Notes: a model not told the origin generated them from the letters alone. DNA of 64,000 nt from Vulcanimicrobiota bacterium (GCA_021107945.1 JAIORV010000162.1:7999-71998); one strand, 5' to 3'. Shown: positions 10,134-60,427, numbered from the stretch's first letter. Program-made: numbers and translations.

Positions 10134-11291
10134 ATGATCCATAAATCAACTAAACCTGAAACTAATCAAAACGATATAGCCAGGGTATCCGCCGGAACGG
10201 AGCGTGTCCTGGGATTGAGCAATATAAGAATGGAAGATCCTCCAACTTGCGCATATTTTATGATTGGTGAGAACTGCAAGGGCACATGTTTTTTCTGCGC
10301 CAGAAGAAGTGAAAGAGAAAATGAAAACATTGAAACATCACCCAATAATTCAACTTCAAAAAAGCGGGGATTCCTGTCCAGAGTGACCTGGAAACCATAC
10401 AATATTCATACGGTTCTGGAGAAAAACGCAGAGCAATTTGAAAATGGATCGATCAGGAGAACTTGCTTCCAGGTTGTCCGGGACACCGAAGCTTACAGAC
10501 AGACCCTTGAGGCGGTTAAGATGCTCAAGAAAAAATGTGATATTCCCGTATGTGTATCAATAAACGGAATATCCCCGGAGCAGTATGGCGAATTGTATGA
10601 GGCCGGGGTTGAGAGGATAGCGTTTTCGTTTGACGCCGCAACACCGGAATTATATGAGAAAATAAAAGGGAAGTCGTGGGATGAGGAATGGGAAATCTAC
10701 CTTGAAATAAACAGGCGCTTCCCCGGCAGGACGGTAATTCACCTGATAGTGGGACTAGGCGAGACCGAGAAGCAGATGGTAGGGGCGATTGAAACATTCT
10801 ATAGGCACAACTCGGAAGTCTCCCTGTTTGCATTCACGCCGATTCCCGGAACGCCGCTGTCAGGAAGAAAACAGCCTTCTCTTTCGACATACAGAAAGAT
10901 ACAAACCGCTCTTTATATGATAAGAACCGGCATGTGGCAATGTAGGAGGGACGTCCCCGTCCCGATAAACGGAGAATGGAAAACGGATGCCGGATGCCAG
11001 AGCTCACTTCCCGTTTCCCACTTCCCATTTCCCGCCTCCAGCATGTGGGACGTCCCCGTCCCGATGAAATGTAAAAATGAACTATATAAATTCGAAAACG
11101 ATAAAATTATATTTAATCGTGATAAAAGAGACTTCTTCATACAAAATATTCCACAGACCGCATTCCGCACATACGGATGCCCCGACTGTAACAGGCCTCT
11201 ATATAACGAAAGACCGGGGCAGGTTCCATATAATTTCCCCCGGGAGCTTACGGAGGAGGAGCGTATTTCTGCGATTGAGTTGATTTTTTGA
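10134..11291 (+). CDS. Radical SAM protein. The C-terminal third contains two in-frame copies of a dispersed palindromic repeat.
   Basis: CxxxCxxC cluster ENCKGTCFFCARR and a TIM-barrel-like core with GLGET. The translation reads through repeat copies at 10941-10970 and 11044-11069 (CRRDVPVPIN / MWDVPVPMKC). Confidence 0.65.
   Translation: MIHKSTKPETNQNDIARVSAGTERVLGLSNIRMEDPPTCAYFMIGENCKGTCFFCARRSERENENIETSPNNSTSKKRGFLSRVTWKPYNIHTVLEKNAEQFENGSIRRTCFQVVRDTEAYRQTLEAVKMLKKKCDIPVCVSINGISPEQYGELYEAGVERIAFSFDAATPELYEKIKGKSWDEEWEIYLEINRRFPGRTVIHLIVGLGETEKQMVGAIETFYRHNSEVSLFAFTPIPGTPLSGRKQPSLSTYRKIQTALYMIRTGMWQCRRDVPVPINGEWKTDAGCQSSLPVSHFPFPASSMWDVPVPMKCKNELYKFENDKIIFNRDKRDFFIQNIPQTAFRTYGCPDCNRPLYNERPGQVPYNFPRELTEEERISAIELIF
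10941..10970. repeat. REP-like palindromic element TGTAGGAGGGACGTCCCCGTCCCGATAAA, copy 1 (inside a CDS)
   Basis: The same 29-mer occurs at 33942-33970. The GGGACGTCCC core is a perfect palindrome. Confidence 0.8.
11044..11069. repeat. REP-like palindromic element, copy 2 (TGTGGGACGTCCCCGTCCCGATGAAA), inside a CDS
   Basis: Near-identical to copy 1, lying 99 bp (33 codons) downstream in the same frame. Confidence 0.75.
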
Positions 11292-11777: not shown

Positions 11778-14576
11778 TCACCTTGCCCCGTGCTTGCGGA
11801 GAAGGTTAACGATGTTGGTATTGCCATATTTTGCTGAATATTTCAGAGGCGTCATACCGTATTTGTCCTTCGCATTTACATCTGCGCCTTTGGATATAAG
11901 TAATTTGGCAGTTTCGGTTTTACCTTCAATTGCCGCCCAGTGCATAGGTGTCCATCCACGATTACTCTTTGCATTTATATCTGCGCCATTGGATATGAGG
12001 AGTTTGGCAGTGTCGGTTTTACCTTCAATTGCCGCCGTGTGCAGGGGTGTCAGTTCATAATTGTCCTTCGCATTTATATCTGCGCCCATGAATATAAGTA
12101 ATTTGGCAGTTTCGGTTTTACCTTCAATTGCCGCATGGTGCAAGGGTGTTCTACCATGTGAATCCTTCACTTTTATATTTGCTCTTTTTAGAAACAAAAA
12201 AGAAGCGAATATGACTGTTATCAATATAATAAAAGATAATGCCAGCAGACCCCAAGGGGACCTCTTACTACTCACCTTTTTGTCTAAATTTGTTCCCCCA
12301 AGAAGATTGACGATGTCGGCATAGCCCCCGGATTTTGCAAATTGTAGGGGCGTCTTTCCTGAATTATCCTTCGAGTCTATATCCGCTCCTTTAGATATTA
12401 AAAATCTGGCAGTGTCGGTTTTACCTTCAATTGCCGCCGTGTGCAGGGGTGTCAGTTCATAATTGTCCTTCGCATTTATATCTGCGCCCATGAATATAAG
12501 TAATTTGGCAGTTTCGGTTTTACCTTCAATTGCCGCATGGTGCAAGGGTGTTCTACCATGTGAATCCTTCACTTTTATATTTGCTCTTTTTAGAAACAAA
12601 AAAGAAGCGAATATGACTGTTATCAATATAATAAAAGATAATGCCAGCAGACCCCAAGGGGACCTCTTACTACTCACCTTTTTGTCTAAATTTGTTCCCC
12701 CAAGAAGATTGACGATGTCGGCATAGCCCCCGGATTTTGCAAATTGTAGGGGCGTCTTTCCTGAATTATCCTTCGAGTCTATATCCGCTCCTTTAGATAT
12801 TAAAAATCTGGCAGTGTCTGTTTTACCTTCTATTGCCGCTCGGTGCAGGGGTGTCCCGCCGTCATTGTCCTTCTCATTTATATTTGCGCCTTTTGATATG
12901 AGGAGCTTTGCGGTGTCGGTTTCACCATTCCTTGCCGCTTGGTGCAGGGATGTCCATCCGCTATTGTCCTTCTCATTAACATTCGCGCCCTTGGATATAA
13001 GGAGCTTGGTAATGTCGGTATTACCTTCTATCGCCGCACAGTACAGGGGTGTCTCATCGTTATTGTTCTTTGTATTCATATTTGCGCCTTTGGATATAAG
13101 GAGCTTGGCAGTGTCGGTTTTACCATAAAATGCCGCCTTATGCAGGGGTGTCTGGCCATAATTGTCCTTCGCATTTACATTTGCGCCATTCCCTATCAGG
13201 AATCTGGTGGTGAAGATTTTACCTTCAATTGCCGCATTGTGCAAGGATGTCCAACCCTTATTATCCTTCGCATTTACATCCGCCCCCTTGAATACTAAAA
13301 GACTGACTATCCTGAAGGCATCGGAATAGCACGACCCTGCTGCAATATGAAGAGGTGGCACGCCGTAATCGTCCTTCGCATTTACATCCGCGCCCTGGTT
13401 GATATGTTCCTTGACTTTTGCCATATTACCATACTTCACCGCCTTAAAAAAATCATTATATCTACCAAATGGTTTCTTAGGAAAATGTGAGGGAGATTGG
13501 GGAGCAGGAACATGGGCATGGGCAGGAGCAGGAACAGATGTATGTGTAAGCGTAGGCGTAGGTGTAGGTGTAGGTGCAGGATACCTCACGCCACTTGTCG
13601 GGTAGCCTGAGGCAACAGCCCCAGGTGGTTTTGAAATATGAGTGGGTGCAGGTGTAGATACAGTTCCAGGATACCGCCCACCACCTCCATCAAGTATCTC
13701 AATGATCATATCAATCGAACCGGGACGGTTGACGCTGGATATATCCACCATGGACATGATGAGATCGTCAAGAAATTCGGGAACATTATTATTTAAATTT
13801 CTCACCGATTCGAATGTAAAAAGAGGACGGGACGGGTCTTCGGGATTGAGACCGGTAAGGAGATAGTGAATCAGAACCCCCAGGGAAAAAATATCGTTCA
13901 GCGGGGAATCATTGCCACGGTACTGGTCAGGAGAAGCATAGCCCTGCGTTCCCAACATCGTGCCTTTTTGCAGGGGCTTCAATATCTTGGCAATTCCAAA
14001 ATCAATAAGATAGAGCTTACTGTCTTTTATCATTGTATTTGAAGGCTTCAGATCACGGTAAATAACAGGGGGATTCTGAGAATGCAGGTAAGAGAATATG
14101 TCGAGGATTTGCCGGAAATATCCCATAACCTCGTCAAGGGGAAGCGGTGGAATGTTCTGCCTCAGATAGCATTCCAGATCCATGCCTTCGATGAATGTCA
14201 TCACAAGGTAATGTGATGTTTTTCCGCCGGAATCTTTTTTGGTGAAATAATCCGTTACCTTGGGAAGTCCTCCGTGATGGAGCTTCGCCAGCAGTTTTGC
14301 TTCTCTCAGGAACATCTCCTGAAATTTCTTCCCATCTGCATCCAGGTTATAGGTCGCCTGCATTTTTTTAACGGCTACGGTCTCTCCCAGGCGTGTGTCA
14401 ACGGCTCGATAGATACAACCCATGTTCCCTGACTTTAACATGCTTTCCACCTGATATCTGTCGTCCAGAAGCTCAACTTTCCGGGTGGCTGACGGCGACA
14501 TATTCGCCCCGCATTCGTTGCAATACTTCGCTGATGATTTTTGTTTTTTTCCGCAGACAGGGCAGAAACGATCCAT
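11778..14576 (-). CDS. Zinc-ribbon / Ser-Thr protein kinase / ankyrin-repeat protein, paralog A (two TM helices from an internal duplication)
   Basis: N-terminal CPVCGKK...YCNECG zinc ribbon. Kinase motifs VAVKKM, YRDLKPSN, DFGIAK and GYASPDQ. PTPTPT linker, then about 17 ANK repeats (TPLHxAAxxGxxDxxKLLIxxGADVNAKD). A TM helix WGLLALSFIILITVIFASFLFL occurs twice. An ATG at 14576 matches the paralog starts (MDRFC); the track start at 14591 is a TTG. Confidence 0.85.
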   Translation of the reverse strand: MDRFCPVCGKKQKSSAKYCNECGANMSPSATRKVELLDDRYQVESMLKSGNMGCIYRAVDTRLGETVAVKKMQATYNLDADGKKFQEMFLREAKLLAKLHHGGLPKVTDYFTKKDSGGKTSHYLVMTFIEGMDLECYLRQNIPPLPLDEVMGYFRQILDIFSYLHSQNPPVIYRDLKPSNTMIKDSKLYLIDFGIAKILKPLQKGTMLGTQGYASPDQYRGNDSPLNDIFSLGVLIHYLLTGLNPEDPSRPLFTFESVRNLNNNVPEFLDDLIMSMVDISSVNRPGSIDMIIEILDGGGGRYPGTVSTPAPTHISKPPGAVASGYPTSGVRYPAPTPTPTPTLTHTSVPAPAHAHVPAPQSPSHFPKKPFGRYNDFFKAVKYGNMAKVKEHINQGADVNAKDDYGVPPLHIAAGSCYSDAFRIVSLLVFKGADVNAKDNKGWTSLHNAAIEGKIFTTRFLIGNGANVNAKDNYGQTPLHKAAFYGKTDTAKLLISKGANMNTKNNNDETPLYCAAIEGNTDITKLLISKGANVNEKDNSGWTSLHQAARNGETDTAKLLISKGANINEKDNDGGTPLHRAAIEGKTDTARFLISKGADIDSKDNSGKTPLQFAKSGGYADIVNLLGGTNLDKKVSSKRSPWGLLALSFIILITVIFASFLFLKRANIKVKDSHGRTPLHHAAIEGKTETAKLLIFMGADINAKDNYELTPLHTAAIEGKTDTARFLISKGADIDSKDNSGKTPLQFAKSGGYADIVNLLGGTNLDKKVSSKRSPWGLLALSFIILITVIFASFLFLKRANIKVKDSHGRTPLHHAAIEGKTETAKLLIFMGADINAKDNYELTPLHTAAIEGKTDTAKLLISNGADINAKSNRGWTPMHWAAIEGKTETAKLLISKGADVNAKDKYGMTPLKYSAKYGNTNIVNLLRKHGAR
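12035..12838. repeat. Perfect 402-bp direct tandem duplication inside kinase paralog A
   Basis: Plus-strand track ORFs 12061-12324 and 12463-12726 have identical translations. The minus-strand protein repeats a 134-aa block (ANK, TM helix, 2 ANK) twice without any change. Confidence 0.85.
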
Positions 14577-14652
14577 TAAGTGTTCCCCCAAAAGAAAATT
14601 ATGGTACTATTCGGACATCTCTTGTAGTAAAAAACTATTCAATCCCGATTTC
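14577..14652 (-). promoter_or_regulatory. Conserved about 80-bp leader/promoter block shared by the three kinase paralogs (copy A)
   Basis: CCAAAAGAAAATTATGGTACTATTCGGACATCTCTTGTAGTAAAAAACTATTCAATCCCGATTTCAT aligns with 18168-18250 and 20716-20800. On the coding strand it contains TTGAATAG and CATAAT boxes and a GGGGGA RBS. Confidence 0.45.
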
Positions 14653-14712
14653 ATGCCGTTTCCCGGCGGGTCGGGAGACCCGCCGCTACCCAAATAGGGG
14701 ACGGGTCTGAAT
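14653..14712. ncRNA. About 60-nt conserved hairpin element (candidate small RNA or MITE), copy 1
   Basis: ATGCCGTTTCC-CGGCGGGTC-GGGA-GACCCGCCG-CTACCCAAATAGGGG. The reverse complement of 26281-26340 carries the same element with two compensatory base-pair changes in the 9-bp stem. Confidence 0.4.
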
Positions 14713-15194
14713 GATTATCCTTTTTATGCCCATTTTTATGACATTAATTATACTTCTGTCACTATAACATTACAGTCTTGATTATATCGTTCTATTCCAA
14801 CGGAATATGCCCTTCCTTATTAAAAAGATCCCTTGCAATCTGTAATTCTGAGTGGACTACGAAAGAATTGCTCTAATCCGATGACTTGCTCAAAGACGTG
14901 ATTATATTGATGCTTGTGATTTACAAAGCGAAGAATCCCTCGAATGTTGGCTTGAGATATCACGCAACATGTGTGATGACAGCGTGGACGACTCTCTTGC
15001 GGGAGATCATTCGCTGTGAAAGACATCGGAGGTAAGTAATACCATTTTGGATTCAAATTTGCCGCATGGGCAGAAAGCCGGTAGCTTCGGCGTCCCCGCC
15101 GGAGAAAGTATTGCGCCGAGGGCGGTTGTCCTCGGTTACACGGACTGAATGTATGCAAAATCTTTCAACGATCAGATTTTCAGGATCTGTTTTA

Positions 15195-18167
15195 TTATTC
15201 TCTCGCCCCTTGTTTGCGGAGAAGATTGACTGTGTCGGTATGTCCATTTAGTAAAGCTTCGCGCAGGGGTGTCCTGTCGTTATTGTTTTTCATGTTTACT
15301 TTTGCTCCTTTGGATATAAGGAGCAAAACGATCTCTGTATGATCATCCTGTGCCGCAAAGTGCAGGGGTGTATCTCCGTTTTTGTCCTTTGCTCTTACAT
15401 CTCCTCTCTTGGATATAAGGAGTTTGGCGGTGTCTGTATGGCCAAAAAATGCCGTGTTATGCAGGGGTGTATCTCCGTTATTGTCCTTTGCGCTTACATC
15501 TCCCCCATTGGATATAATGAGCCTGGCAGTGTCGGTATGACCAAAAAATGCCGTTTTGTGCAGGGGCGTATTTCCGTTGTTGTCCTTTGCGCTGACATCT
15601 CCTCCGCTGGATATAATGAGCTTGGCAGTGTCGGTATGTCCATCCGATGCCGCACTGTGCAGGGGTGTCTTTCCATCATTGTCCTTCGCATTCACATTTG
15701 TGCCTTTGGAGATGAGAAGCTCAACGAAGCCGGTGTGCCCTTTTGATGAAGCGTAATGAAGGGTTGTTCTTCCGTCATTATCCTTTGCATTCACATCTGC
15801 ACCTTTGGATATAAGGAGTTTAGCAGTGTCGGTTTTACCTCCAATTGCTGCTTGGTGTAAGGGTGTTCTACCAAGTGAATCCCTGGCATTTATATTTGTT
15901 TTTTTCAATTTAAGATATGGCAAAAGGGCAAAAGCAGTGAATATTAATGCTATAACGGCAAAACAAATTATCACACCCCGGAAAACCCCCTTTTTTCTTA
16001 TTGTCCCACCTTCAGCTGCCCCCTCGGATATGAGGAGTTTGGCGGTGTTGCTATATCCATTATTCATTGCGTAGTATATGGGTGTCTTGCCTAAATTATC
16101 CTTTACATTTACATCTGCACCTTTGGATAAAAGGAGTTTGACAGTGTCGCTTTTATCTTCACTTGCTGCAAAGTGCAGAGGAGTCCGTCCATCGTTGTCT
16201 TTAGCGCCTATATCCGCTTCCTTGGATAAAAGGAGTTTGGCAGTATCGGTATGGCCAAGAAATACCGTTTTATGCAGGGGCGTATCTCCGTTATTGTCCC
16301 TTGCATTTGTATCTGATCCCTTGGCTATAAGGAGCCTGGCGGTATAGACGTGACCATAAAGTGCCGCATAATGCAGAGGTGTTCGTTCATTATTATCTTG
16401 CACATTTACTCTTGCTCCTTTGGACATAAGGAGCCTGGAGGCGTGTGTGTGACCATAAAGTGCAGCAAAGTGCAGAGGTGTCCGTTCACTATTGTCTTTC
16501 ACATCTATTATTGCTTCTTTGGATATAAGGAGCTGGGCAGTGTCGGTCCTGCCTTCAATTGCCGCTCTGTGCAGGGGTGTCTTTCCATCATGGTCCTCCA
16601 TATTCACATCTGCGCCTTTGGATATAAGGAATCTGGAAATGTCGATGCGGTCTTCTATTGCCACTTTGTGCAGGGGAGTACGTCCCAAATTATCTTTAGT
16701 ATTTACATTTGCGCCACTTTGCACAAGGAGTTCAACGATGTCTATATCGCCGTTGAATGCGGCATAGTGCAGGGGTGCTAAATGGTCATTATTCTTCGTA
16801 TTCACTTTTGCCCCCATGGATATAAGGAGTTTGGCAATGCTGAGATGGCTTTCTATTGCCGCTTTGTGTAAGGGTGTACGTCCAAAATTGTCCTTAACAT
16901 TTACATTTGCACCATTGGAAATAAGGAGTTTGGCGGTGTCGGTATGGCCTTCATACATCGCCCAGTGCAAGGGTGTACATCCGTCATTATCCCGCGCATT
17001 TACATTGGCCCCCTGTTTTATATATTCTTTGACCTGGGCAGTCTTGTGAACCATCGCCGCTGAAAAAAAATCATCATACTTATCAAATTTCTTCCTGGGA
17101 TAACCGGGAGGAGGCGAGGGATCCGGAACAGGTGGTGTGGGTTCAGGTTCAGGTGCAGGTGCAGGCTCAGGAGTGGACGTTGGTGTAGCTTCAGGTGTTG
17201 GCGCAGGCTCTTGGGCGGGAGTTGGTGTAGGTTCAGATATTGGCACGGAATCATTTGTTGGGTCCTGCTGTTTGCTTCCATTCAGTATCTCAATGATTTT
17301 ATCAACCGACTCGGGACGGTTGGCGCAGGTTAAATCCACCATGGACATAATAAGATTATCGAGAAATTCGGGAACATTTTCATTGAAGTCTCTCACCTGT
17401 TCGAATGTAAAAAGAGGGCGGGATGGGTCTTCCGGATCAAGCCCGGTAAGGAGAAAATGTATCAAACCTCCCAGGGAGAAAATGTCGTTTTGGGTGCTAT
17501 CATTGCCCCGCAACTGATCGGGAGAAGCATAACCCGGAGTACCTAACATCGTACCTTTTTCTTGGGGTTTAAATATTTTGGCAATTCCAAAATCGACAAA
17601 ATAGAGCTTGCCGTCATTGATTATGATATTTGAAGGCTTTAGATCACGGTAAATAACAGGAGGGTTTTGAGAATGCAGGTAAGATAATATTTCGAGAACT
17701 TGTCGGAAATACCCCATAACTTCATCAATAGGAAGCGGTGGAAGATTTTGTTCCAGATAGCACCCCAGATTCATTCCTTCGATGAATGTCATAACAAGGT
17801 AATGTGATGTTTTTCCGTCGGGATCCTTTTGGGAGAAAAAATTCGTTACTTTGGGAAGGCCTTCATGATGGAGTTTTATCAAAAGTTTTGCTTCCCTCAG
17901 GAACATCTCTTGAAATTTCATCCCGCCTGTGCCCCGACTAAAAGTCACCTGCATTTTCTTGACGGCTACAGTCTCTCCCAGGCGTGTATCAACAGCTCGA
18001 TAGACACAACCCATATTGCCCGACTTTACAATGCATTCAACCTTATATCGGTTGTCCAGAAGCTCAACTTCCCCGGCAGCTTCCGGTGATATATTCGCTC
18101 CGCATTCGTTGCAATATTTCGCCGATGCTTCTTGCTTTTTTCCGCAGACAGTGCAGAAACGATGCAT
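15195..18167 (-). CDS. Zinc-ribbon / Ser-Thr protein kinase / ankyrin-repeat protein, paralog B (one TM helix inside the ankyrin array)
   Basis: MHRFCTVCGKK...YCNECG. Same kinase motifs as paralog A. PEPTPAP linker. About 10 ANK repeats, the TM helix GVIICFAVIALIFTAFALLPYL, then about 7 more ANK repeats. Confidence 0.85.
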   Translation of the reverse strand: MHRFCTVCGKKQEASAKYCNECGANISPEAAGEVELLDNRYKVECIVKSGNMGCVYRAVDTRLGETVAVKKMQVTFSRGTGGMKFQEMFLREAKLLIKLHHEGLPKVTNFFSQKDPDGKTSHYLVMTFIEGMNLGCYLEQNLPPLPIDEVMGYFRQVLEILSYLHSQNPPVIYRDLKPSNIIINDGKLYFVDFGIAKIFKPQEKGTMLGTPGYASPDQLRGNDSTQNDIFSLGGLIHFLLTGLDPEDPSRPLFTFEQVRDFNENVPEFLDNLIMSMVDLTCANRPESVDKIIEILNGSKQQDPTNDSVPISEPTPTPAQEPAPTPEATPTSTPEPAPAPEPEPTPPVPDPSPPPGYPRKKFDKYDDFFSAAMVHKTAQVKEYIKQGANVNARDNDGCTPLHWAMYEGHTDTAKLLISNGANVNVKDNFGRTPLHKAAIESHLSIAKLLISMGAKVNTKNNDHLAPLHYAAFNGDIDIVELLVQSGANVNTKDNLGRTPLHKVAIEDRIDISRFLISKGADVNMEDHDGKTPLHRAAIEGRTDTAQLLISKEAIIDVKDNSERTPLHFAALYGHTHASRLLMSKGARVNVQDNNERTPLHYAALYGHVYTARLLIAKGSDTNARDNNGDTPLHKTVFLGHTDTAKLLLSKEADIGAKDNDGRTPLHFAASEDKSDTVKLLLSKGADVNVKDNLGKTPIYYAMNNGYSNTAKLLISEGAAEGGTIRKKGVFRGVIICFAVIALIFTAFALLPYLKLKKTNINARDSLGRTPLHQAAIGGKTDTAKLLISKGADVNAKDNDGRTTLHYASSKGHTGFVELLISKGTNVNAKDNDGKTPLHSAASDGHTDTAKLIISSGGDVSAKDNNGNTPLHKTAFFGHTDTARLIISNGGDVSAKDNNGDTPLHNTAFFGHTDTAKLLISKRGDVRAKDKNGDTPLHFAAQDDHTEIVLLLISKGAKVNMKNNNDRTPLREALLNGHTDTVNLLRKQGARE

Positions 18168-18250
18168 TAAGACTCCTCCAAAAAATTTGATACTATTCGG
18201 ATATCTCTTTTGATAAAAAACTATTCAATCTCGATTTCATGCCGTTTACG
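18168..18250 (-). promoter_or_regulatory. Conserved leader/promoter block, copy B
   Basis: Aligns with 14577-14652 and 20716-20800. A GGAGGA RBS lies 8 nt upstream of the ATG. Confidence 0.45.
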
Positions 18251-18417
18251 GGTCAATCAGAAGACCGGCATTCATGTTCGGTTAAGGTGTTTTCTGATAG
18301 TATTTACCTGGTAGAGGTTGGCTCCTGAGCAACTTGACAGGGTCATGAAACTGTCAAAACGCCTTAAACACGACGGGCCTCCCGATCCGTCATTGCCCAA
18401 TAAAAGTTCTATTTTAT

Positions 18418-20715
18418 TCAATTTAACGATCCAGGACTTGGCTGAAATTTTTTCTCAGACACCAATCGCTTTACTCCGTTCTTATGAAGAAAGGAAGCTA
18501 TATGGGTATGCCCATTCGATGTAGCATATTGCCGGGGTGTCCAGCCCCTGACGTCTTCCGCATTTACATTTGCGCCTTTGGATACAAGGAGTTTGGCCGT
18601 GTCTTTATGTCCATCCGATGCCGCACCGTGCAGAGGTGTCCATCCATCATTGTCCTTCGCATTCACATTTGCCCCCCTGGATATCAGGAGCTCGATGATG
18701 TCTGTGTGTTCTTTGGATTCCGCCAGGTGCAGAGATACCCAGCCGTTATTTTCCTTCGCATTCACATTTGCTCCCCTGGATATAAGGAGCTTGATGACGT
18801 CGATATGTCCATATCTTGCGGCATAGTGCAGAGGTGTCCAGCCTCTGTTCTCCTTCGCATTCACATTTACACCCTTGGATATAAGGAGCCTGACGACGTC
18901 GATATGTCCATATCTTACCGCATAGTGTAGAAGTGTCCAGCCTTTATTATCCTTAACATTTATATCTGCTCCATTTGACATGAGAAATCTGACGATCTCG
19001 GTATTACCTTGATTTGACGCAAAATGAAGGGGTGTCCATCCGTCATTGTCCTTCGCATTTATATTTGCCCCCCTGGATATAAGGAGCTCGACGATATCGC
19101 TGTGTCCTTTGGATTCCGCCAGATGCAGAGGTGTCCAGTTGCTATTTTCCCTCGCATTCACATTTGCCCCCCTGGATATAAGGGACTTGACGACTTCGAT
19201 ATGTCCATATCTTGCCGCATAGTGCAGAGGTGTCCAGTTGCTGTTTTCCTTCGTATTCACATTTGCACTCTTGGATACAAGGAGCTTGACGATGTCGGCA
19301 TGTCCATATCTTGCGGCATAGTGCAGGGGTGTCCATCCGCTATTTTCCTTTGCGTTTACAAGTGCGTTTTTGGATGTGAGGAGTTTGACGATGTCGGTAT
19401 GGCCTTCTTTAGCCGCTCTATGCAGAAGTGTTCTTCCGTTATTATCCTTTGTGTTTACATACGCGCCCTCGGAGATGAGGAGCCTGACGATGTTTGTATG
19501 TCCATTGAATGTAGCATATTGCAGGGGTGTTACGTTTTTGCTGTCCTTTGCATTTACATCTGCCCCCTGGTTGATATATTCTTCAACTGTCATAATTCTA
19601 TCATTCTTAACCGCCTTGAAAAAATCATCATATCTATCGAACTGCCTTTTAATCAACTGATTCTTGGGAAAATATGAAGGGCCTGATGGGGCGGGATCAT
19701 ATGAAGAAGACAAAGCAGGTTTAGTTGCATTTGCAGGAGATTGCCTGTCACTTGTCAGGTGGCTTGGAGTATTAATCACCGGCGGTTTTGAAACAAGAGA
19801 AGATGCAGAATGCCGTCCTTCACTTCCATCGAGTATCTTAATGATCTGATCAATCGAACCGGGACGGTTGACATTGGACATTTCCACCATGGATAGGATG
19901 AGATTGTCGAGAAATTCGGGAATGTCCTTGTTGGAATTTCTTACCGGTTCGAATGTAAAAAGAGGACGGGATGAGTCTTCGGGATTGAGTCCGGAAAGAA
20001 GGTAATGAATCAGAACTCCAAGCGAATAAATATCGTTTTGCGGGGAATCATTGCCCCGGCATTGGTCAGGAGAAGCATAGCCCCGCGTTCCCCACATTGT
20101 GCCTTTTTGCAGGGGTTTCAATATTTTGGCAATTCCAAAATCAACAAGAAGGAGCCTGCCGTTATTAAACATGATATTTGAAGGCTTCAGATCGCGATAG
20201 ACAACGGGAGGGTTCTGAGAATGCAGGTAAGAAAATATGTCGAGAATCTGCCGGAAAAATCCTATAACTTCATCAAGAGGAAGCGGTGGAATGTTCTTCC
20301 TTAGATAGCATTCCAGATCCACGCCTTCGATGAATGTCATCACAAGGTAATGTGATGTTCTTCCGACGGGATCCTCTTTGGTGAAAAAATCTGTTACCTT
20401 GGGAAGTCCTCCGTGATGGAGCTTCGCCAATAGTTTTGCCTCTCTCAGAAACATTTCCTGAAATTTATTCCCGTCTGTGTCGAAATTATAAGTCGCCTGC
20501 ATTTTTTTGACGGCCACGGTCTCTCCTAGGCGTGTGTCAACGGCCCGATAGACACAGCCCATGTTCCCCGACTTTAATATTCTTTCCACCCTATATCGGT
20601 TGTCCAGAAGTTCAACTTGCCGGGTAATTCCCGGCGACATTTTCGCTCCGCATTGGTTGCAATATTTAGTTTTTGATTTTTGATTTCTTCCGCAGATAGT
20701 GCAGTAATGATCCAT
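18418..20715 (-). CDS. Zinc-ribbon / Ser-Thr protein kinase / ankyrin-repeat protein, paralog C (soluble, no TM helix)
   Basis: MDHYCTICGRN...YCNQCG. Kinase motifs conserved. S/P-rich linker followed by about 11 ANK repeats. Confidence 0.85.
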   Translation of the reverse strand: MDHYCTICGRNQKSKTKYCNQCGAKMSPGITRQVELLDNRYRVERILKSGNMGCVYRAVDTRLGETVAVKKMQATYNFDTDGNKFQEMFLREAKLLAKLHHGGLPKVTDFFTKEDPVGRTSHYLVMTFIEGVDLECYLRKNIPPLPLDEVIGFFRQILDIFSYLHSQNPPVVYRDLKPSNIMFNNGRLLLVDFGIAKILKPLQKGTMWGTRGYASPDQCRGNDSPQNDIYSLGVLIHYLLSGLNPEDSSRPLFTFEPVRNSNKDIPEFLDNLILSMVEMSNVNRPGSIDQIIKILDGSEGRHSASSLVSKPPVINTPSHLTSDRQSPANATKPALSSSYDPAPSGPSYFPKNQLIKRQFDRYDDFFKAVKNDRIMTVEEYINQGADVNAKDSKNVTPLQYATFNGHTNIVRLLISEGAYVNTKDNNGRTLLHRAAKEGHTDIVKLLTSKNALVNAKENSGWTPLHYAARYGHADIVKLLVSKSANVNTKENSNWTPLHYAARYGHIEVVKSLISRGANVNARENSNWTPLHLAESKGHSDIVELLISRGANINAKDNDGWTPLHFASNQGNTEIVRFLMSNGADINVKDNKGWTLLHYAVRYGHIDVVRLLISKGVNVNAKENRGWTPLHYAARYGHIDVIKLLISRGANVNAKENNGWVSLHLAESKEHTDIIELLISRGANVNAKDNDGWTPLHGAASDGHKDTAKLLVSKGANVNAEDVRGWTPRQYATSNGHTHIASFLHKNGVKRLVSEKKFQPSPGSLN

Positions 20716-20800
20716 TAAGATAAGACTCCCCCAAAAATTATGATGTTATTCGGACATCTCTTGTGGTGAAAACTATTCAATCACGATTCCATAACTATTC
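20716..20800 (-). promoter_or_regulatory. Conserved leader/promoter block, copy C
   Basis: Aligns with copies A and B. Confidence 0.45.
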
Positions 20801-20918
20801 GGACCGGCCAAAAGACCGGTCTGGAATTAAATCTCGGTGTGGTTGGAATGATTATCCTTTTTTTCAAACTCTGCGTCCTCCGCATCCTCTGCGGTGAATA
20901 CTCAAAGTCATCAAAAAA

Positions 20919-22247
20919 CTATATCTTCAACACCCTCGTCTTGAACTTCGCCAATTTTATCCACTGGACAATGGGGATTCTTGCCGGGCACACGTATGTA
21001 CAGCATCCACATTCCATGCAATCCATAAGGTTATATTCATATTTCGCTTCGGACCATCTCTCAGCTTTTGCCAGTTTTGCAAGCACCTGGGGCATGAGCT
21101 TTTGAGGGCAATGTTTTATGCAGAAGCTGCATCTTATGCAGTTCTCAGGCTCATAAAGCTTCGCCTTTTCTTTAGAGAGAATCAGGATACCCGATGTTCC
21201 CTTGATTACGGGTGTGTCGAGGGTATATTGGGCGATACCCATCATCGGTCCGCCGGATATTACCTTTACAGGCTCTTTTGTCAGACCTCCCGCCGCCTCG
21301 ACAAGGGTTTTGAATGGCGTACCGACGCGAACCTGGAAATTGCCCGGCTCCGCCACACAATCTCCGGTGATGGTAACAATCCTCTCATACAACGGCTTTC
21401 CCTTGACAACGGCTTCATAGACAGCATACGATGTACTCACATTTTGTACCACTGCTCCCACATCGACGGGAAGCCCGCCTGACGGAACCTCTCTGCCCGT
21501 GATGGCGTAAATAAGCTGTTTCTCCGATCCCTGCGGATACCTTGTCTTCATAACCTGAAGCTTCATCGGAGAATGACTGCTCTCGGTTTTCTCAAGCTCT
21601 TTTTCTATGGAGCTTATCGCCAGATGTTTGTTGTCCTCGACAGCTATTATAACTTCCGTCGCTGCTGTGGCGCGTTTTAATATCCTGACACCCTCGAGCA
21701 TCTCTGCGGTTTTTTCGCGCATAAGCCTGTCATCGCTTGTGAGAAAAGGCTCACATTCCGCACCGTTAATGATGAGAACATCCACCTTTTTCCCTTTCGG
21801 CGGAGATATTTTGACATGGGTCGGGAAGGCCGCGCCTCCCATGCCCACGACTCCAGCTTCCTTGACAAGGGCTACAATGTCGGCGGGTTTCATATCATGC
21901 CACCGGCGGTTTGCGGGTTTGCATTCAAGCATATCAACGCCGGAACCCTGGATAACAATTGCCTTGGATTCTCCGAACACCGGATGTGGTCTGTTCTCTA
22001 TTGCCTTGACCGCGCCGGTGATGGACGAATGAACCACGGCGGTAATGAATGATTCCGCCTGGGCAATTTTCTGTCCCGTTCTTACCTCGTCTTTTACTTT
22101 AACAAGGGGAGTCGCCGGGGCTCCAAGATGTTGTGAGACAGGAATTACAACTTCTTTTGGCGCATCGAGCACCTGTATAAGTTCAGTCTCGGTTAATTCT
22201 TTGTTTCCGGCAGGATGGATTCCTCCGGGAAATACAATTGTACTCAT
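20919..22247 (-). CDS. RnfC-like electron-transport subunit (SLBB NADH-binding domain plus two 4Fe-4S ferredoxin motifs), with no other Rnf subunits nearby
   Basis: N-terminal GGIHPAGNKELTE, GGAAFPTHVK, and clusters CIRCSFCIKHCP and CMECGCCTYVCP. Confidence 0.7.
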   Translation of the reverse strand: MSTIVFPGGIHPAGNKELTETELIQVLDAPKEVVIPVSQHLGAPATPLVKVKDEVRTGQKIAQAESFITAVVHSSITGAVKAIENRPHPVFGESKAIVIQGSGVDMLECKPANRRWHDMKPADIVALVKEAGVVGMGGAAFPTHVKISPPKGKKVDVLIINGAECEPFLTSDDRLMREKTAEMLEGVRILKRATAATEVIIAVEDNKHLAISSIEKELEKTESSHSPMKLQVMKTRYPQGSEKQLIYAITGREVPSGGLPVDVGAVVQNVSTSYAVYEAVVKGKPLYERIVTITGDCVAEPGNFQVRVGTPFKTLVEAAGGLTKEPVKVISGGPMMGIAQYTLDTPVIKGTSGILILSKEKAKLYEPENCIRCSFCIKHCPQKLMPQVLAKLAKAERWSEAKYEYNLMDCMECGCCTYVCPARIPIVQWIKLAKFKTRVLKI

Positions 22248-22251
22248 TTTA

Positions 22252-23118
22252 TCACCTTATGTTTATTTCGGTTTTCATTTCTTTATTGATTTTTTCTGAG
22301 AATTTTGCCAGGAAATGTGCCGTCCATGTAAGTAATCCGGGATTAAACTGGAAACTATCCTCAACAATAACATCTTCAAGGAGATGTCTCTTCATTTCAT
22401 AACATAGTCCATACTGGATATCTACCAGGATCGACAGGAGGGTCGAGATGTCACCATCGGGGAAGTTGGATAACCTATACACTTCCTTTGCAAGTTGTAC
22501 GCACTCCTGATAGACATCTGCTATTTCATTTGCCAATTCCCGATAGACTTTCTCCGGGACATCCGCCTGCCGTAATTTCACCCGTAATGCTTCCTTGAGA
22601 GCTTCATAGTCCGAGGACATTTCCTCACGGCTTATGGATATTTCTTCCACTTCTTCGCCTGTGTCTTTATTCTCTTCCAATATGTCTTCTAAATCAACAT
22701 TCTCCGGTTCTTCCAGTGCCTCGGGCTCCGGCTCCTCCTCATATTCATCTTCGCCCAGGAACTTTTCACCTTCCAGTACCTCCTCGAGTGTCCTGATAAG
22801 GGTGTCGAGCGGACCATGGAGGTTCTGCGTGTTGAATAATAGGCGTTTTGAACTTTCCCTGATATATAGAATAAACTTGAGATATTCACCCCAGTCTCCA
22901 TCGTCGGCGGAAAGGAATTTCTCAACATATCCCATATAATCCATGGTGAGTATGGACATTTGCCCTATGTAAAAGGAGGGCTTGATCAGAGCCAGCATAT
23001 TGACCCGGGATGAGGCAAGCTTCTTATAGACATCATTGGTAATATCACTGGCAGTGGTTTTTTGCTTCAGTTTTATAATTACATCATTCCAGAAAGACAT
23101 TTTTTCTCTTCCTTTCAA
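22252..23118 (-). CDS. Hypothetical protein with a strongly acidic central region (EDEYEEEPEPEALEEPENVD)
   Basis: Long ORF abutting the downstream gene. The stop of the 950-aa gene (23119) is adjacent to this start (23118). No recognisable motifs. Confidence 0.5.
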   Translation of the reverse strand: MKGREKMSFWNDVIIKLKQKTTASDITNDVYKKLASSRVNMLALIKPSFYIGQMSILTMDYMGYVEKFLSADDGDWGEYLKFILYIRESSKRLLFNTQNLHGPLDTLIRTLEEVLEGEKFLGEDEYEEEPEPEALEEPENVDLEDILEENKDTGEEVEEISISREEMSSDYEALKEALRVKLRQADVPEKVYRELANEIADVYQECVQLAKEVYRLSNFPDGDISTLLSILVDIQYGLCYEMKRHLLEDVIVEDSFQFNPGLLTWTAHFLAKFSEKINKEMKTEINIR

Positions 23119-25971
23119 TTAGAATAACAATTCGACGAGTCTTGATCGCAATTCCTCGCCCTTGAGTCCATCGTTTCTTATAGTGCGAATCTTCTCGGCA
23201 AGTTTCGGGCGATCAAGCTCATATTCCAACCAGTTGGCAAAATCTCCCTTGGACAAATGGAACGCCAAGGACGCGGGATCTATAAAGTGAATGGAGTCAA
23301 CAAACTCCTTGTAACTCCTTGCCCTTATGCCCAGGTATTTACCGGGAATCCAGAAATGGAAAGCACGATCTACGGCAAGATATATTTGCTTCTTGGGATC
23401 CTTCACCTTTTCTTTGACTTTTTCAAGCCTCTCATGCTCCCCAACTATTTTTACATCAACTGTTTCAGGTTTGTCTTCTTTCAATCGCTCGATTGTCTGA
23501 CTGAATTTTTTCAGTAGTTCCCAGGCCTCTTCTTTCGAAGCGGCTTCGGTGTAAACATGAAAGAGAGGCGCAGAAGGATCCGGGAGCATGAGAACCCACG
23601 CCTGGTCAAAGAATATCTTCAAACCTTCTATCACTTCCATAGGCTTATCCTCATGCACTTCAATCATACGGCGCATTATCTTGCCCTTTTCCTGCCAGGT
23701 GCAGCCAACAGTATCATGTGCCATATAAAAAGCGGGAACCTCGCTGAAAATCTCGGATAACTTCCTTTTTTCCCTTGCCATAAATTCAAGCATTTTGGCG
23801 AATGCAAACATCGCATCAAATGAGGGATGAAAACGAGGGAATATGAAGGAACCGTTAGAGTGGGCGGCAAAGACGATCTTCTGCTCGCCGAGATTTGACG
23901 TGTGCATCAGAGACCTGCCATCACTCTTTGTTGTGATAACCTTGCCTCCGTGTCTGTGCGCTATCTCTTCTATGACAGAAGGAGCGGTGACGGGCACGAC
24001 GACCATTCCCTGATCAGAGTGCTTCAGGACAAGATGAGTGAACAGGGCGAGAAGCCTGTTGTCCGAAATTATATCACCCTTGTCATCGACTATTACAATC
24101 TTCTCACAATCCATATCTATCCGTACACCAAGATCAGCATTTAAAGTGAGGACAATATTCTTGAGGCTTGTTAGTTCTTCTTCAACTCTTGATATTGATT
24201 CCGAGGCTTTCTCCGCGTCCAGATATGCGTTAATTGAAATAGTCTCACATCCCATTTTTCCCAGGATATGTGGCAGAACAAGTGATGCGATTCCATAACT
24301 ATAATTCAGAACAACCTTGAGCCTTGCTTTTTTGATGAGATCCTGATCCAGATTTTTAAAGAATCCCTCGTTATACTGATCAATAATTCTCCCGGGAAAT
24401 TCAATCGTGCCGACTTCGTCCATCGAAGTTCTTCGAAAGTCTTCCCTGAAGAAAATATTTTCCAATTTCCTCTCGACCGATTTGTTTATATTAATTCCAT
24501 TATCATCAAAGAACTCGATAAGAACATTCCGCGGATCCCAAGGATCTATTCTGGCATGAATTCCGCCCTTTGCACCGGTGTTTTTAACGACATACCTACT
24601 CACGGGAGCAGGATTGACACGGAGATCATAGCAATTAACACCCACTGAAATTAACCCGCATATAATCGAGCGGTTGAGCATGCGTGCAGCAGGGTGGGAA
24701 TCACGGCTGGTTATTGCGGCTGAGCCTTTTGCAAGGTAAGCTCCATATGCCGCCCCGAGCTTCATGGCAAATTCCGGTGTTATCTCGATATTGGCTAATC
24801 CTGATATCCCGTCAACGCCAAATAGTGAACCGGGCCATCTGCCTCCCCAGATAAGGCTCATATTTACAGTTGCGCCGGCTTCGATGTTCTTGTTCGGCCA
24901 TACCTTGACCTGTGGTTGTACAACCGCCCCGGAATCTATGAACACCTTGTCTCCAAGAACTACACCTTCGTTGATTACAACATTATTCTTTATCGTACTC
25001 TGGCGGCATACTATTCCTCCGGACATCCTGCTGTTCTTTCCAAGATAAACATTATTCCAGAGAGTTGACATGTGAACAACTGCTCCCTCCTCGACTATGC
25101 AGTTGTCGCCGATTATGGTGTATTCATCCACATGAGCGTTTGCCTTGATCCGGCAGTTTCTGCCTATTATGGCAGGGCCGCCGATGTTGGCGGAAGGATG
25201 AATCTCACTACCTTCTCCGAGCCAGACATTCCTTCTGATTTTTTCACCGGGAATCTTTACATCCACTTTACTCTGCATTATATCAGACTGGGCGTTTCTG
25301 TATTGCTGAAGGTTGCCGATATCGCACCAGTAACCGGTTGTAATACAGCCGTATATGGATTTTTCTTCCTCCAGGAGTTTGGGAAATATATCCTTGCTCC
25401 AATCATAATTTTTGCCTCTTACCATATAATCTAAAACTTCAGGCTCGAGGATATATATCCCGGTATTGATTGTATCGCTGAAAACCTCTCCCCAGGAAGG
25501 CTTTTCAAGAAACCTGCGTATCGCTCCATTTTCTTCCGTTATAACAACGCCAAATTCCAGCGGATTATCAACTCTTGTAAGTGTAAGAGTGGCAAGAGAT
25601 TTCTTCTCATTATGGAAGTCAATAATTCCCTTGAGATTGAAATCAGTGAGAGCATCTCCGCTGACGATAACAAAAGTTTCATCAAGGAAATCGTCCAGGA
25701 GTTTAACCGCTCCCGCCGTTCCAAGTGGCTCTTCTTCAACGGAATAGTGAAGTTGAACTCCCCAATCGGAGCCGTCTCCGAAATAGCTCACAATTTCATC
25801 GGCCAGATAGTGAAGTGTCGCTGCAATCTGGGTAATACCATTCTTCTTAAGAAGCTCGATGATATATTCCATTACAGGCTTGTTGCATAAAGGTACCAAA
25901 GGCTTAGGCTTGTTACAGGTAAGTGGTCTCAGCCTGGAACCTTCTCCTCCCGCCATTACTACTGCCTTCAT
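23119..25971 (-). CDS. Fusion enzyme: sugar-1-phosphate nucleotidyltransferase, left-handed beta-helix and phosphomannomutase/phosphoglucomutase-like domains
   Basis: N-terminal [22 protein letters not shown] (NTP-transferase G-loop). Hexapeptide repeats at aa 250-400. PGM/PMM-like region TSRDSHPA ... [11 protein letters not shown]. 950 aa. Confidence 0.8.
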
Positions 25972-26280
25972 TTTTCATTAACCCCCTTGATAAAATAAAT
26001 TATTAAAGGCTCCTCAAAACAAGACCAGGGATAGGAGCCAGCAAAGTAAATAAAATTAAAATCATTGAAATATCACCTTGTATATTTCAATTTCTGCTTC
26101 CAAAATCCTCCGGATCATGGTTCGTGATAAAAAAAAGATTGTACCCATTAAGACTAACCGCAGCAAGAGAGGCTCCCAGCCTCGATTCTAATGGCAGTCC
26201 GCCTCGATATTCGTGGTAAGATGCTACTCCCATAAAGGAGGTTTTAATGTTTTAAAGATTGATATTTAAAGTGTAATTAT

Positions 26281-26340
26281 TCAGACCGCCCCACTATTTG
26301 GGTAGAGGCTGGTCTCCCGACCAGCCTGGAAACGGCATAA
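26281..26340. ncRNA. About 60-nt conserved hairpin element, copy 2 (reverse orientation relative to copy 1)
   Basis: rc = TTATGCCGTTTCC-AGGCTGGTC-GGGA-GACCAGCCT-CTACCCAAATAGTGGGG. The stem is preserved by compensatory changes relative to 14653-14712. Confidence 0.4.
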
Positions 26341-26366
26341 AATAGGGGTTGGGAAACCCCTACAGA
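26340..26366. repeat. REP-like element in reverse orientation (rc = TCTGTAGGGGTTTCCCAACCCCTATTT)
   Basis: Matches TGTAGGAGGGGTTTCCTAACCCCGATAAA at 37618-37649. Confidence 0.6.
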
Positions 26367-60245: not shown

Positions 60246-60271
60246 TTTTATTCTGAGTGCAGAAATAGCAG

Positions 60272-60347: not shown

Positions 60348-60353
60348 TACTAA

Positions 60354-60427
<74 letters not shown>

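Follow-up and report, generated by a model that had tools for sequence, protein, structure and literature searches.

In receptor kinases of the PknB/PknA/StkP type, the kinase lies in the cytoplasm at the N-terminus and is followed by a disordered juxtamembrane linker, one transmembrane (TM) helix and extracytoplasmic sensor repeats at the C-terminus, a plan that resembles two of the three proteins described here (A and B). Mycobacterial PknG (2pzi, 4y0x) joins an N-terminal metal-binding module of CxxCG type, a rubredoxin-like Cys4 domain, to a Hanks kinase and C-terminal alpha-helical TPR repeats, and the soluble third protein, C, with its putative zinc ribbon, follows a similar plan. The serine/threonine kinases (STKs) of Planctomycetota mostly have a single TM, the kinase being cytoplasmic and the TPR or WD40 arrays periplasmic, and ankyrin is listed among their accessory domains, e.g. 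in BBM86261.1 (PMC11032199). Lineage-specific expansions and tandem duplicates characterize the STK repertoires of Planctomycetota and Myxobacteria (PMC11032199) as well as the family of A, B and C, and in both cases the proteins include mostly single-pass kinases with long solenoid repeats beyond the membrane. Among eukaryotic proteins, kinase and ankyrin repeats (ANK) are combined in RIPK4/ANKK1, ILK, TNNI3K and LRRK2. RIPK4 and ANKK1 have an N-terminal kinase and C-terminal repeats.

The locus analyzed here lies in a stretch of 64,000 nucleotides from a Vulcanimicrobiota bacterium (the window) and consists of three head-to-tail open reading frames on the minus strand, paralogs A, B and C, which were recovered where the first-pass annotation of the sequence had placed them (Table 1). 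NCBI records A and C as 'ankyrin repeat domain-containing protein'. The three proteins belong to a widespread, uncharacterised kinase family and are best read as ordinary bacterial receptor kinases of an unusual build, not as a new system.

Table 1. Features of the three kinase-ankyrin genes, by position in the window
Feature	Position	Strand	Description
Paralog A	11778..14576	-	932 aa from ATG; identical to NCBI MCD4785694.1; zinc ribbon, Hanks kinase, linker, 8 ANK, TM, 3 ANK, TM, 4 ANK
A zinc ribbon (putative)	14502..14567	-	aa 4-25, CxxCG-x10-CxxCG
A kinase catalytic domain	13686..14456	-	aa ~41-297; Pkinase 120.4 bits
A Pro/Thr/Ala-rich linker	13473..13685	-	aa 298-368
A proximal ankyrin block	12681..13472	-	N-cap + 7 repeats, last one cap-like
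A TM helix 1	12591..12662	-	aa 639-662; Kyte-Doolittle 19-aa mean 2.83
A TM helix 2	12189..12260	-	aa 773-796; identical to TM helix 1
A near-perfect tandem duplication	12005..12830	-	unit 402 nt (TM + 3 ANK), ~2.05 copies, 1 mismatch
A upstream leader	14577..14747	-	proximal ~100 nt conserved with B and C; distal part a GC hairpin element
Paralog B	15195..18167	-	990 aa; zinc ribbon, kinase, linker, 11 ANK, TM, 7 ANK
B kinase catalytic domain	17277..18047	-	aa ~41-297; pLDDT mostly 80-95
B Pro/Thr/Glu linker	17091..17276	-	aa 298-359; low-complexity; residues 299-363 predicted disordered
42-nt tandem repeat inside B linker	17148-17244		
B proximal ankyrin solenoid	16002..17090	-	aa 360-722 (364-718 in the AlphaFold2 model); pLDDT >90
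B TM helix	15912..15977	-	aa 731-752; Kyte-Doolittle mean 2.88
B distal ankyrin solenoid	15198..15902	-	aa 756-990, 7 repeats
B upstream conserved leader	18168..18269	-	
Paralog C	18418..20715	-	765 aa; identical to NCBI MCD4785696.1; zinc ribbon, kinase, Ser/Pro linker, 12 ANK, no TM
C kinase catalytic domain	19825..20595	-	closest solved structures PknA, StkP, PknB
C ankyrin array	18460..19641	-	includes older 396-nt internal duplication (18635-19350, 86% identity)
C upstream conserved leader	20716..20830	-	

The kinase is nearest to PknA, StkP and PknB by sequence (E values of 2e-32, 2e-29 and 1e-23, respectively) and to PknA, StkP/Stk1 and PknB by fold (TM-score 0.70-0.72). Unlike the PknB/Stk1 kinases, however, the three proteins are devoid of PASTA domains (NF033483 PknB_PASTA_kin, 153-161 bits against a cutoff of 450) and have an additional N-terminal zinc ribbon; C has no TM helix, whereas A and B place a long ankyrin solenoid between kinase and TM and have ankyrin repeats in the putative sensor as well. 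Compared with PknG, the repeats are ankyrin instead of TPR and the kinase is more distant (E 1e-21 for PknG, 2e-32 for PknA). Alignments by phmmer begin at query residue 16 for PknG versus 36-37 for PknA/PknB, and Foldseek alignments span 307-316 columns versus 268-286 for PknA and PknB; a query with only the zinc-ribbon segment did not bring up PknG, so any homology between the metal modules is conjectural. Compared with the STKs of Planctomycetota and Myxobacteria, the phylum is another one (Eremiobacterota/Vulcanimicrobiota), the kinase clade bears a zinc ribbon, the repeats in the three genes are ankyrin in place of TPR/WD40, and in A and B they lie on both sides of the TM. As for the eukaryotic ankyrin kinases, weak Pfam matches to ANK_LRRK2 were obtained, but the kinase is nearest to bacterial ones, and a zinc ribbon and a TM helix are present in addition; nothing indicates a common origin of the fusion with that of the eukaryotic proteins, and the two kinds of fusion therefore most likely arose by independent domain shuffling.

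Kinase halves, zinc ribbons and upstream leaders

The Pfam Pkinase model (PF00069; cutoff 31.7 bits) matches the three paralogs at 120.4, 121.6 and 126.7 bits, and the complete Hanks-type kinase that had been claimed is present with every catalytic motif intact: xxGxxGxV (SGNMGCVY), VAVKK (K70), the alphaC Glu (E92), YRDLKPSN (D175, K177, N180), DFG (D192), SPD and NRP (R284). In an alignment of nine family sequences G53, K70, E92, R174, D175, N180, D192-F193-G194 and R284 are invariant, and the same catalytic residues line up with PknA. Careful alignment shows none of them disrupted, and the kinases are predicted to be catalytically active. The YRD and SPD motifs, which the first-pass annotation had singled out, do not distinguish these proteins, as SPE/SPD variants occur all through the family. 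YRD is the catalytic-loop form of PKA.

The N-terminal CxxCG module proposed earlier is a putative Cys4 zinc ribbon, with C5, C8, C19 and C22 invariant across family members and short strands beside each Cys pair in the AlphaFold2 (AF2) models (pLDDT 55-70). The Pfam Zn_Ribbon_1 model (PF13240) scores 21.1 bits on A and 20.9 bits on B, under its cutoff of 25, and C is not listed.

Conserved kinases had been set against diverged ankyrin halves, and the figures agree: amino acid identity is 71-80% in the kinase halves and 38-49% in the linker plus first ankyrin repeat (N-cap). The linkers are of low complexity, also as described, and that of B is predicted to be disordered. The kinase halves are under purifying selection: dN/dS is 0.22-0.26, and dS (0.40-0.61) is short of saturation in each of the three pairwise comparisons. 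In the ankyrin halves dS is about 1 and the alignment is uncertain; positive selection, as the term 'diversifying' would imply, is not demonstrated there. The upstream leaders of the three genes, whose conservation had also been pointed out, share 84-90% identity across 60-73 nt, and in A the conserved leader of about 100 nt carries two GAATAG motifs and the Shine-Dalgarno sequence GGGGGA. Kinase synonymous sites differ at 31-42%, whereas the leaders retain the identity just given, which implies that they are a constrained regulatory region. All three genes are intact and under selection, and each is preceded by a conserved promoter/5'UTR region of its own.

Ankyrin blocks and membrane-spanning segments

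Using a custom HMM and manual layout, we counted 15 ankyrin repeats in A, 18 in B and 12 in C, and Pfam returns 10-17; the number thus differs among paralogs as anticipated, over a range close to the 11-17 first given. The Pfam Ank families (PF00023/PF12796) match with E values of 1e-117 to 5e-198 across the three proteins. Variation between repeats is concentrated at positions 4, 6, 11, 14 and 15 (in our own repeat numbering), which we take to be the canonical ligand-binding surface in designed ankyrin proteins. The arrays show 99-nt periodic repeats that are 60-80% identical in nucleotide sequence within an array, and they contain block duplications of 402 nt in A (about 100% identity) and 396 nt in C (86%). 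The block in A corresponds to 134 aa, comprising the TM and three ankyrin repeats with a single mismatch between copies, and TRF reports it at 12005-12890 with a period of 402 and 2.2 copies. Arrays of this kind would grow and diverge via unequal crossing-over of multi-repeat blocks; block duplication of this sort, conserved kinases and diverged ankyrin halves are what the earlier view of a paralogous signalling or recognition module leads one to expect.

Among NCBIfam models, those of Legionella T4SS Ank effectors have the highest raw scores (AnkY, 237-392 bits), and ankyrin-rich proteomes are typical of host-associated bacteria, a combination that would suit effectors translocated into a eukaryotic host or prey, as are the Legionella Ank and LegK effectors. 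These scores, however, lie far under the cutoffs (450-1400 bits; for AnkY, 392 at best versus 600, with every other model falling still further short) and reflect the repeats only, while the kinase is nearest to bacterial PknA/PknB and not to eukaryotic or LegK kinases. Internal TM helices are present, no secretion signal was found in the proteins and no secretion-system genes nearby, and sensor domains typical of bacteria occur in other members of this kinase clade. We regard a role as translocated effectors as exceedingly unlikely.

The single TM helix proposed for both A and B holds for B, which has one strong helix, but not for A, which has two identical ones; a hydropathy scan of C found no TM helix, in line with its description as soluble. 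The helix had further been described as embedded in the middle of the array. Ankyrin repeats do lie on both sides of it, but the array is not continuous: the repeat ahead of each TM resembles the capping repeat at the C-terminal end of an array, so each array is an ankyrin domain by itself. The AF2 model of B (mean pLDDT 84) comprises the kinase, a disordered linker and two separate solenoids, both with pLDDT above 90, and a TM segment (718-754) of low confidence. The TM block occupies about one repeat, with TPLH-to-TPLH spacings of 68 and 73 aa versus 66 for two repeats. Over the 40 aa that follow the TM, A and B share 72% identity, with a dS of 0.43; this homology indicates that their common ancestor already had the TM module.

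The TM flanks in A and B hold four K/R residues before and five after the helix, and with such near-equal flanks the positive-inside rule leaves their orientation unfixed. The relatives with a TM helix are richer in K/R on its N-terminal flank (6:3, 4:1, 4:0, 5:3 and 3:1), a bias that fits a kinase on the inside and ankyrin repeats on the outside. In B, the distal block of ankyrin repeats is probably exposed to the outside, where it would serve as a protein-binding sensor. To our knowledge, few ankyrin repeats have been documented outside the cytoplasm in bacteria. The two helices of A would return its last four repeats to the cytoplasm, which would put identical domains on different sides of the membrane in A and B.

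Family layouts and proposed signalling role

The search returned 703 homologues at E<=1e-3, many of them with zinc ribbon, Pkinase and Ank. Eight paralogs at 42-54% identity occur in the metagenome-assembled genome (MAG) JAJTBE01 (six of the eight with ankyrin repeats), Vulcanimicrobiota MAGs hold dozens of family copies per genome at 34-39% identity, and 31 family kinase ORFs at metagenome loci carry ankyrin repeats. The ankyrin-bearing matches are 41-54% identical over 88-100% of the 300-aa query of zinc ribbon plus kinase, and the ankyrin N-cap motif Y.D[IF]F.A[IV].. is present in A, B, C and relatives. We define the family by at least 40% identity over zinc ribbon plus kinase, the N-cap motif and one or more C-terminal ankyrin blocks, and A, B and C share all of these with their relatives. 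No experimental literature specific to this family was found. The fusion of zinc-ribbon kinase and ankyrin repeats, which the first-pass annotation had not recognized as a described architecture, is common in Vulcanimicrobiota/Eremiobacterota-type MAG proteins and auto-annotated.

Family layouts are soluble, kinase-TM-ANK (L004, L005, L083, P0276, P0028 and P0272), kinase-ANK-TM (P0002/L006) and kinase-ANK-TM-ANK (P0270, L093, L094/L095 and probably L085). The last layout is rare, and its occurrence in at least four other proteins indicates that it is not the assembly chimera for which a check had been proposed.

An assembly artefact could nevertheless account for the ANK-TM-ANK layout, and especially for the doubled TM of A, if the true genes encoded soluble kinase-ANK or one-TM proteins. 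The contig is a SPAdes node of about 8.9x coverage built from short reads, periodic repeats fill the arrays, and the duplication in A exceeds a typical short read and yields a topologically awkward protein. On the other hand, repeats at the within-array identities given above are easy to assemble, A and B have homologous modules of TM plus next repeat that have diverged about as far as their kinases, and the layout recurs in independent assemblies (P0270, L093, L094/95). Moreover, the exact 932-aa sequence of A is recorded on two contigs (85,996 and 89,738 bp), and a comparable but older block duplication is seen in C. We judge the artefact very improbable overall; for the layout of B it can practically be set aside, and for the duplication in A it is unlikely but has to be reckoned with.

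The reading we favour, and consider likely, is that the three genes are in-paralogs, specific to the lineage and arranged in tandem, which encode zinc-ribbon Hanks kinases of receptor type with outward distal ankyrins, C being soluble. The family plan consists of the N-terminal putative Cys4 zinc ribbon, the kinase and a variable C-terminal protein-interaction domain, which is ankyrin in A, B and C. B, together with A if its duplication is real, would be a membrane-anchored receptor-type kinase with zinc ribbon, kinase, disordered linker and proximal ankyrin solenoid on the cytoplasmic side, a TM helix crossing the cytoplasmic membrane, and a distal ankyrin solenoid on the opposite face that would bind a protein ligand. 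Ligand-driven clustering may then lead to trans-autophosphorylation of the activation loop (Thr in KGTMLGT), and the active kinase would then act on substrates for which the proximal ankyrin repeats serve as a recruiting scaffold. C would be the soluble form of the same kinase-ankyrin module. No PP2C phosphatase or specific partner adjoins the three genes, and in the neighbourhood of relatives only generic two-component genes recur.

A further-reaching proposal, which we find rather improbable, is that the ANK-TM-ANK kinases form an unrecognised class of transmembrane receptors whose outer solenoid reads surface or secreted proteins of other cells or invaders. If true, outer recognition would be coupled directly to a cytoplasmic kinase that has an ankyrin scaffold of its own for substrates, repeat-block duplication in a tandem gene array would let specificity diversify rapidly, and the system would be a bacterial analogue of the eukaryotic repeat-based receptor kinases in innate immunity and cell-cell recognition. 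The ANK-TM-ANK layout looks independently derived in A and B, where linker and second N-cap are absent, and in P0270 and L093/L094, where both are present; if so, the convergence would speak for a function under selection.

A defence module had also been suggested, and would be an anti-phage or non-self system in which variable ankyrins sense invader proteins and the kinase imposes growth arrest by mass phosphorylation, on the model of single-gene kinase systems such as PD-T4-6 or Stk2. The PADLOC PD-T4-6 kinase models match all three proteins at 163-171 bits (no curated cutoff), several of these alignments beginning at residue 4-9 and so including the zinc-ribbon region, and the PADLOC models PDC-M72A and 'Ankyrin' match the repeats; NCBIfam MzaA and MAD6 give sub-threshold matches, and tandem paralogs with fast-changing binding repeats are the pattern expected of recognition genes. 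The PD-T4-6 matches are generic, however, as PknB_PASTA_kin scores about equally, and no NCBIfam model reaches its cutoff on A, B or C. Genes nearby serve housekeeping or general signalling (RnfC, LipS2 lipoyl synthase, NTP-transferase/PMM, MutS, TPR and HEAT proteins), with no restriction, toxin, integrase or other defence genes among them, and no relatives turned up in the viral contigs searched. We therefore consider a defence role improbable. Members of the same kinase clade also carry TPR (P0017, P0019, P0067 and P0072), FHA, FGE-sulfatase and RDD partners, and dozens of family copies per genome with such partners form the pattern of a general expansion of STK signalling.

Kinase halves of the three paralogs

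Pfam assigns a protein kinase domain to each of the head-to-tail paralogs A, B and C (120-127 bits against a cutoff of 31.7) together with very strong ankyrin-repeat matches, and the N-terminal zinc-ribbon model falls just under its threshold (21 against 25 bits). Over the first 300 residues the aligned proteins are 71-80% identical in pairs. Careful alignment finds all Hanks motifs intact in the three proteins (SGNMGCVY, VAVKK, the alphaC Glu, YRDLKPSN, DFG, SPD and NRP), leaving no sign of disrupted catalytic residues, and a nine-member family alignment shows the motif positions and the four Cys of CxxCG-x10-CxxCG to be invariant. The YRD and SPD motifs, noted in place of HRD and APE in the first-pass annotation, do not strike us as peculiar, because the catalytic loop of PKA has the YRD form and the SPE, SPD and APE variants all occur among relatives. 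For all A/B/C pairs, the kinase-domain dN/dS is 0.22-0.26 (dS 0.40-0.61), so the three kinase domains are under purifying selection. By sequence and predicted fold, the closest kinases are the bacterial receptor kinases PknA, StkP/Stk1 and PknB. The linker C-terminal to the kinase is rich in Pro/Thr/Glu, Pro/Thr/Ala or Ser/Pro depending on the paralog, is only 38-49% identical between paralogs, and is predicted by AlphaFold2 to be disordered in B.

Coordinates of the paralogs, repeats, intergenic elements and neighbouring genes (TM, transmembrane helix; TRF, tandem repeat calls)
Feature	Position	Strand	Length	Description
Paralog A	ORF 11778-14591, ATG at 14576	-	932 aa	ORF scan; N-cap + 7 repeats, TM, 3 repeats, TM, 4 repeats (total 15)
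Paralog B	15195-18167	-	990 aa	ORF scan; N-cap + 10 repeats, TM, 7 repeats (total 18)
Paralog C	18418-20715	-	765 aa	ORF scan; N-cap + 11 repeats (total 12)
Duplication in A	12005-12890			TRF; period 402, 2.2 copies
Duplication in C	18635-19350			TRF; four-repeat block, period 396 nt, 1.8 copies, 86% matches
Repeat in B linker	17148-17244			42-nt tandem repeat, 2.3 copies, encoding the PTPEPA-type low-complexity linker
GC-hairpin element (GGCGGGTCTCCCGACCCGCC)	14640-14747	-	~108 nt	Intergenic; distal part upstream of A
GC-hairpin element, fourth copy	26244-26351	+		80% identical, opposite orientation
B-A spacer	14592-15194		603 nt	No gene annotated in the public record
Dubious ORF in B-A spacer	14820-15158		112 aa	Sole ORF in the spacer
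LipS2-family lipoyl synthase	10134-11291	+		Radical-SAM protein; NCBIfam, 294.6 vs cutoff 270 bits
RnfC-like protein	20919-22247			Stand-alone; adjoins the region of the 950-aa fusion
Acidic protein	22252-23118		288 aa	Beside the 950-aa fusion; no family match
NTP_transferase fusion	23119-25971	-	950 aa	NTP_transferase + left-handed beta-helix + phosphoglucomutase/phosphomannomutase domains I-III
ORF	26386-26811		141 aa	
FHA protein	28476-30095	+	539 aa	Three FHA / Yop-YscD-type phosphothreonine-binding domains
Amino-acid permease	31960-33939	+		Fused with a PTS EIIA-2 domain
Three clustered tRNA genes	60173-60427	+		

Ankyrin arrays and transmembrane segments

The array layouts were obtained from sequences set out in 33-residue lines, and a custom repeat HMM agrees with all three totals. 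The hydrophobic segments of A and B are strong, averaging 2.83-2.88 on the Kyte-Doolittle scale over 19 residues, with basic residues on either side. A single such helix had been reported for A; there are in fact two, created by a 402-nt tandem duplication comprising one TM and three repeats, whose copies differ by a single mismatch. The repeat preceding each TM looks like a terminal capping repeat, the TPLH-to-TPLH spacing across the TM is 68 and 73 aa as against 66 for two repeats, and AlphaFold2 models B (mean pLDDT 84) as two separate high-confidence solenoids, at residues 364-718 and 756-990, connected by a low-confidence helical segment. From the capping-like repeat and the modelled solenoids, B is best described as two ankyrin domains parted by a TM helix that occupies about one repeat's space.

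We considered whether the arrangement of ankyrin repeats on both sides of a TM (ANK-TM-ANK) could be an assembly chimera, and rejected this reading because the kinase domains are under purifying selection, A and C recur unchanged in an NCBI MAG that bears the label 'Candidatus Eremiobacteraeota bacterium' (as MCD4785694.1 and MCD4785696.1, both named 'ankyrin repeat domain-containing protein'), the sequence following the TM is homologous in A and B, and the same layout is present in unrelated assemblies. The post-TM segments of A and B share 72% identity over 40 aa with a dS of 0.43, similar to the kinases, which indicates that the TM predates the A/B split. The window belongs to SPAdes contig ENA ERZ26872897 NODE_12 (85,996 bp, ~8.9x coverage), and a protein-cluster record places A and C each on two contigs, the longest of 89,738 bp. 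The near-perfect duplication within A carries a moderate assembly risk, and we regard an artefact there as fairly unlikely. Array growth by block duplication is nevertheless genuine, because C holds an older block duplication of its own. In the 250-nt spacer past the C stop codon, read for a remnant of the TM, no hydrophobic frame was found.

Among 39 aligned repeats, variation clusters at repeat positions 4, 6, 11, 14 and 15, which we take to match the canonical binding surface of designed ankyrin proteins. This pattern fits divergent binding specificities and is not proof of positive selection; dN/dS of the ankyrin halves was discarded as evidence of such selection, since dS is ~1 and the repeat register is ambiguous.

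Relatives and a candidate receptor-kinase function

Using the zinc ribbon and kinase as query, we found 703 homologues, the best only 53% identical; this 300-aa, word-indexed search returned only matches of <=523 aa and so under-sampled long family members, and longer close relatives exist (family proteins P0264, P0270 and P0276). Many of the 703 combine Zn_Ribbon, Pkinase and Ank domains, coming from Vulcanimicrobiota/Eremiobacterota, 'Xenobiia', Anaerolineaceae and mislabelled 'Firmicutes' MAGs, and TPR, FGE-sulfatase, FHA or RDD domains are also carried within the same kinase clade. The nearest relatives among GTDB species representatives, a scanned set to which the source MAG does not belong, are eight paralogs in MAG JAJTBE01 (42-54% identity); several Vulcanimicrobiota-type MAGs each contain dozens of paralogs at greater distance, frequently arranged as tandem pairs or triples. 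On JGI metagenome contigs, 31 of the 88 family kinase ORFs contain ankyrin repeats. A search with full-length B against 1.84 billion representatives was dominated by giant eukaryote-type ankyrin proteins and yielded only ~8 useful family members. The architecture recurs in related bins, where the first-pass annotation had proposed to look for it. Its parts and the receptor-kinase logic are familiar, and databases contain many auto-annotated relatives.

Among these family proteins (P) and metagenome-locus ORFs (L), four layouts were distinguished: soluble proteins with one to five ankyrin blocks (P0230, P0186, P0264, P0265), kinase-TM-ANK (L004, L005, L083, P0276, P0028, P0272), kinase-ANK-TM (P0002/L006) and kinase-ANK-TM-ANK (P0270, L093, L094/L095 and probably L085). 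Proteins of the last layout have a linker before the second block, which also has its own N-cap, unlike in A and B; this difference points to independent origins of the layout. In relatives, Lys and Arg are concentrated on the N-terminal side of the TM, which fits a topology with the kinase inside and the ankyrin repeats outside; the flanks in A and B are balanced (4 vs 5).

The best-supported model, which goes beyond the architecture itself, is a receptor-type Ser/Thr kinase in which the zinc ribbon, kinase and proximal ankyrin scaffold would be cytoplasmic, the TM would serve as membrane anchor, and the distal ankyrin block would act as an extracytoplasmic, protein-binding sensor, with C as a soluble form of the module. 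The closest characterised architectural analogue is PknG (Cys4 rubredoxin-like domain, kinase and TPR repeats), to which alignments reach further N-terminally; we keep this link as analogy only, because the zinc-ribbon segment alone did not retrieve PknG from the PDB. Repeat-type sensors are known on bacterial Hanks kinases. To our knowledge, no study has addressed ankyrin repeats in that role or as a scaffold of such kinases, and ankyrin domains facing outward from a bacterial membrane are barely documented. If the topology holds, it would widen the repertoire of bacterial receptor kinases and offer a compact system for how solenoids on both sides of a membrane relay binding to a kinase. These proteins add Eremiobacterota/Vulcanimicrobiota-type bacteria to the lineages whose Ser/Thr kinome is very large and evolves fast. 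Planctomycetota STKs are organised along the same lines, with TPR/WD40 arrays in the periplasm, and carry ankyrin as a rare accessory domain (PMC11032199); this was the only ankyrin mention in a literature search that returned no description of a zinc-ribbon-kinase-ankyrin family or of an ANK-TM-ANK bacterial kinase.

A defence role, raised earlier as a possibility, would make A, B and C anti-phage kinases, and PADLOC PD-T4-6 kinase and ankyrin models do match them, but with scores equal to those that PknB-type models give, and all NCBIfam matches to the three proteins fall short of their cutoffs. The genes around them have housekeeping or signalling functions (RnfC-like, LipS2 lipoyl synthase, NTP-transferase/PMM fusion, MutS, TPR, HEAT, FHA, Crp, GGDEF), viral contigs yielded no relatives, and a conserved-neighbour census of 39 ANK-kinase loci found only generic histidine-kinase and response-regulator genes to recur, so that no specific partner emerges; we consider this role improbable. 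That the proteins are translocated effectors resembling Legionella Ank proteins, a reading whose sole basis is sub-threshold repeat matches to Legionella Ank models, is highly improbable.

Upstream leaders and surrounding genes

Approximately 100 nt upstream of each start codon are conserved among A, B and C (84-90% identity over 60-73 nt), exceeding the kinase synonymous sites (58-69% identity, pS 0.31-0.42), which argues that each paralog has its own constrained promoter/5'UTR. Rfam over the whole window returned three tRNAs only and no family in the leaders, and a sigma-70 promoter and terminator scan gave counts at shuffle expectation, with no match in the leaders. RNA folding of the three leaders found no shared significant structure (z = -0.9, -0.2 and -2.3); a riboswitch or attenuator reading was dropped because only a distal GC hairpin was consistent. 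Partial copies of this GC-hairpin element lie upstream of B and C, and the fourth copy sits downstream of the 141-aa ORF; it could be a small repeat or act as a terminator in both directions. The dubious ORF in the B-A spacer resembles neither kinases nor ankyrin proteins. The 539-aa FHA protein, some 8 kb away from the kinases, could be a reader of Ser/Thr phosphorylation.
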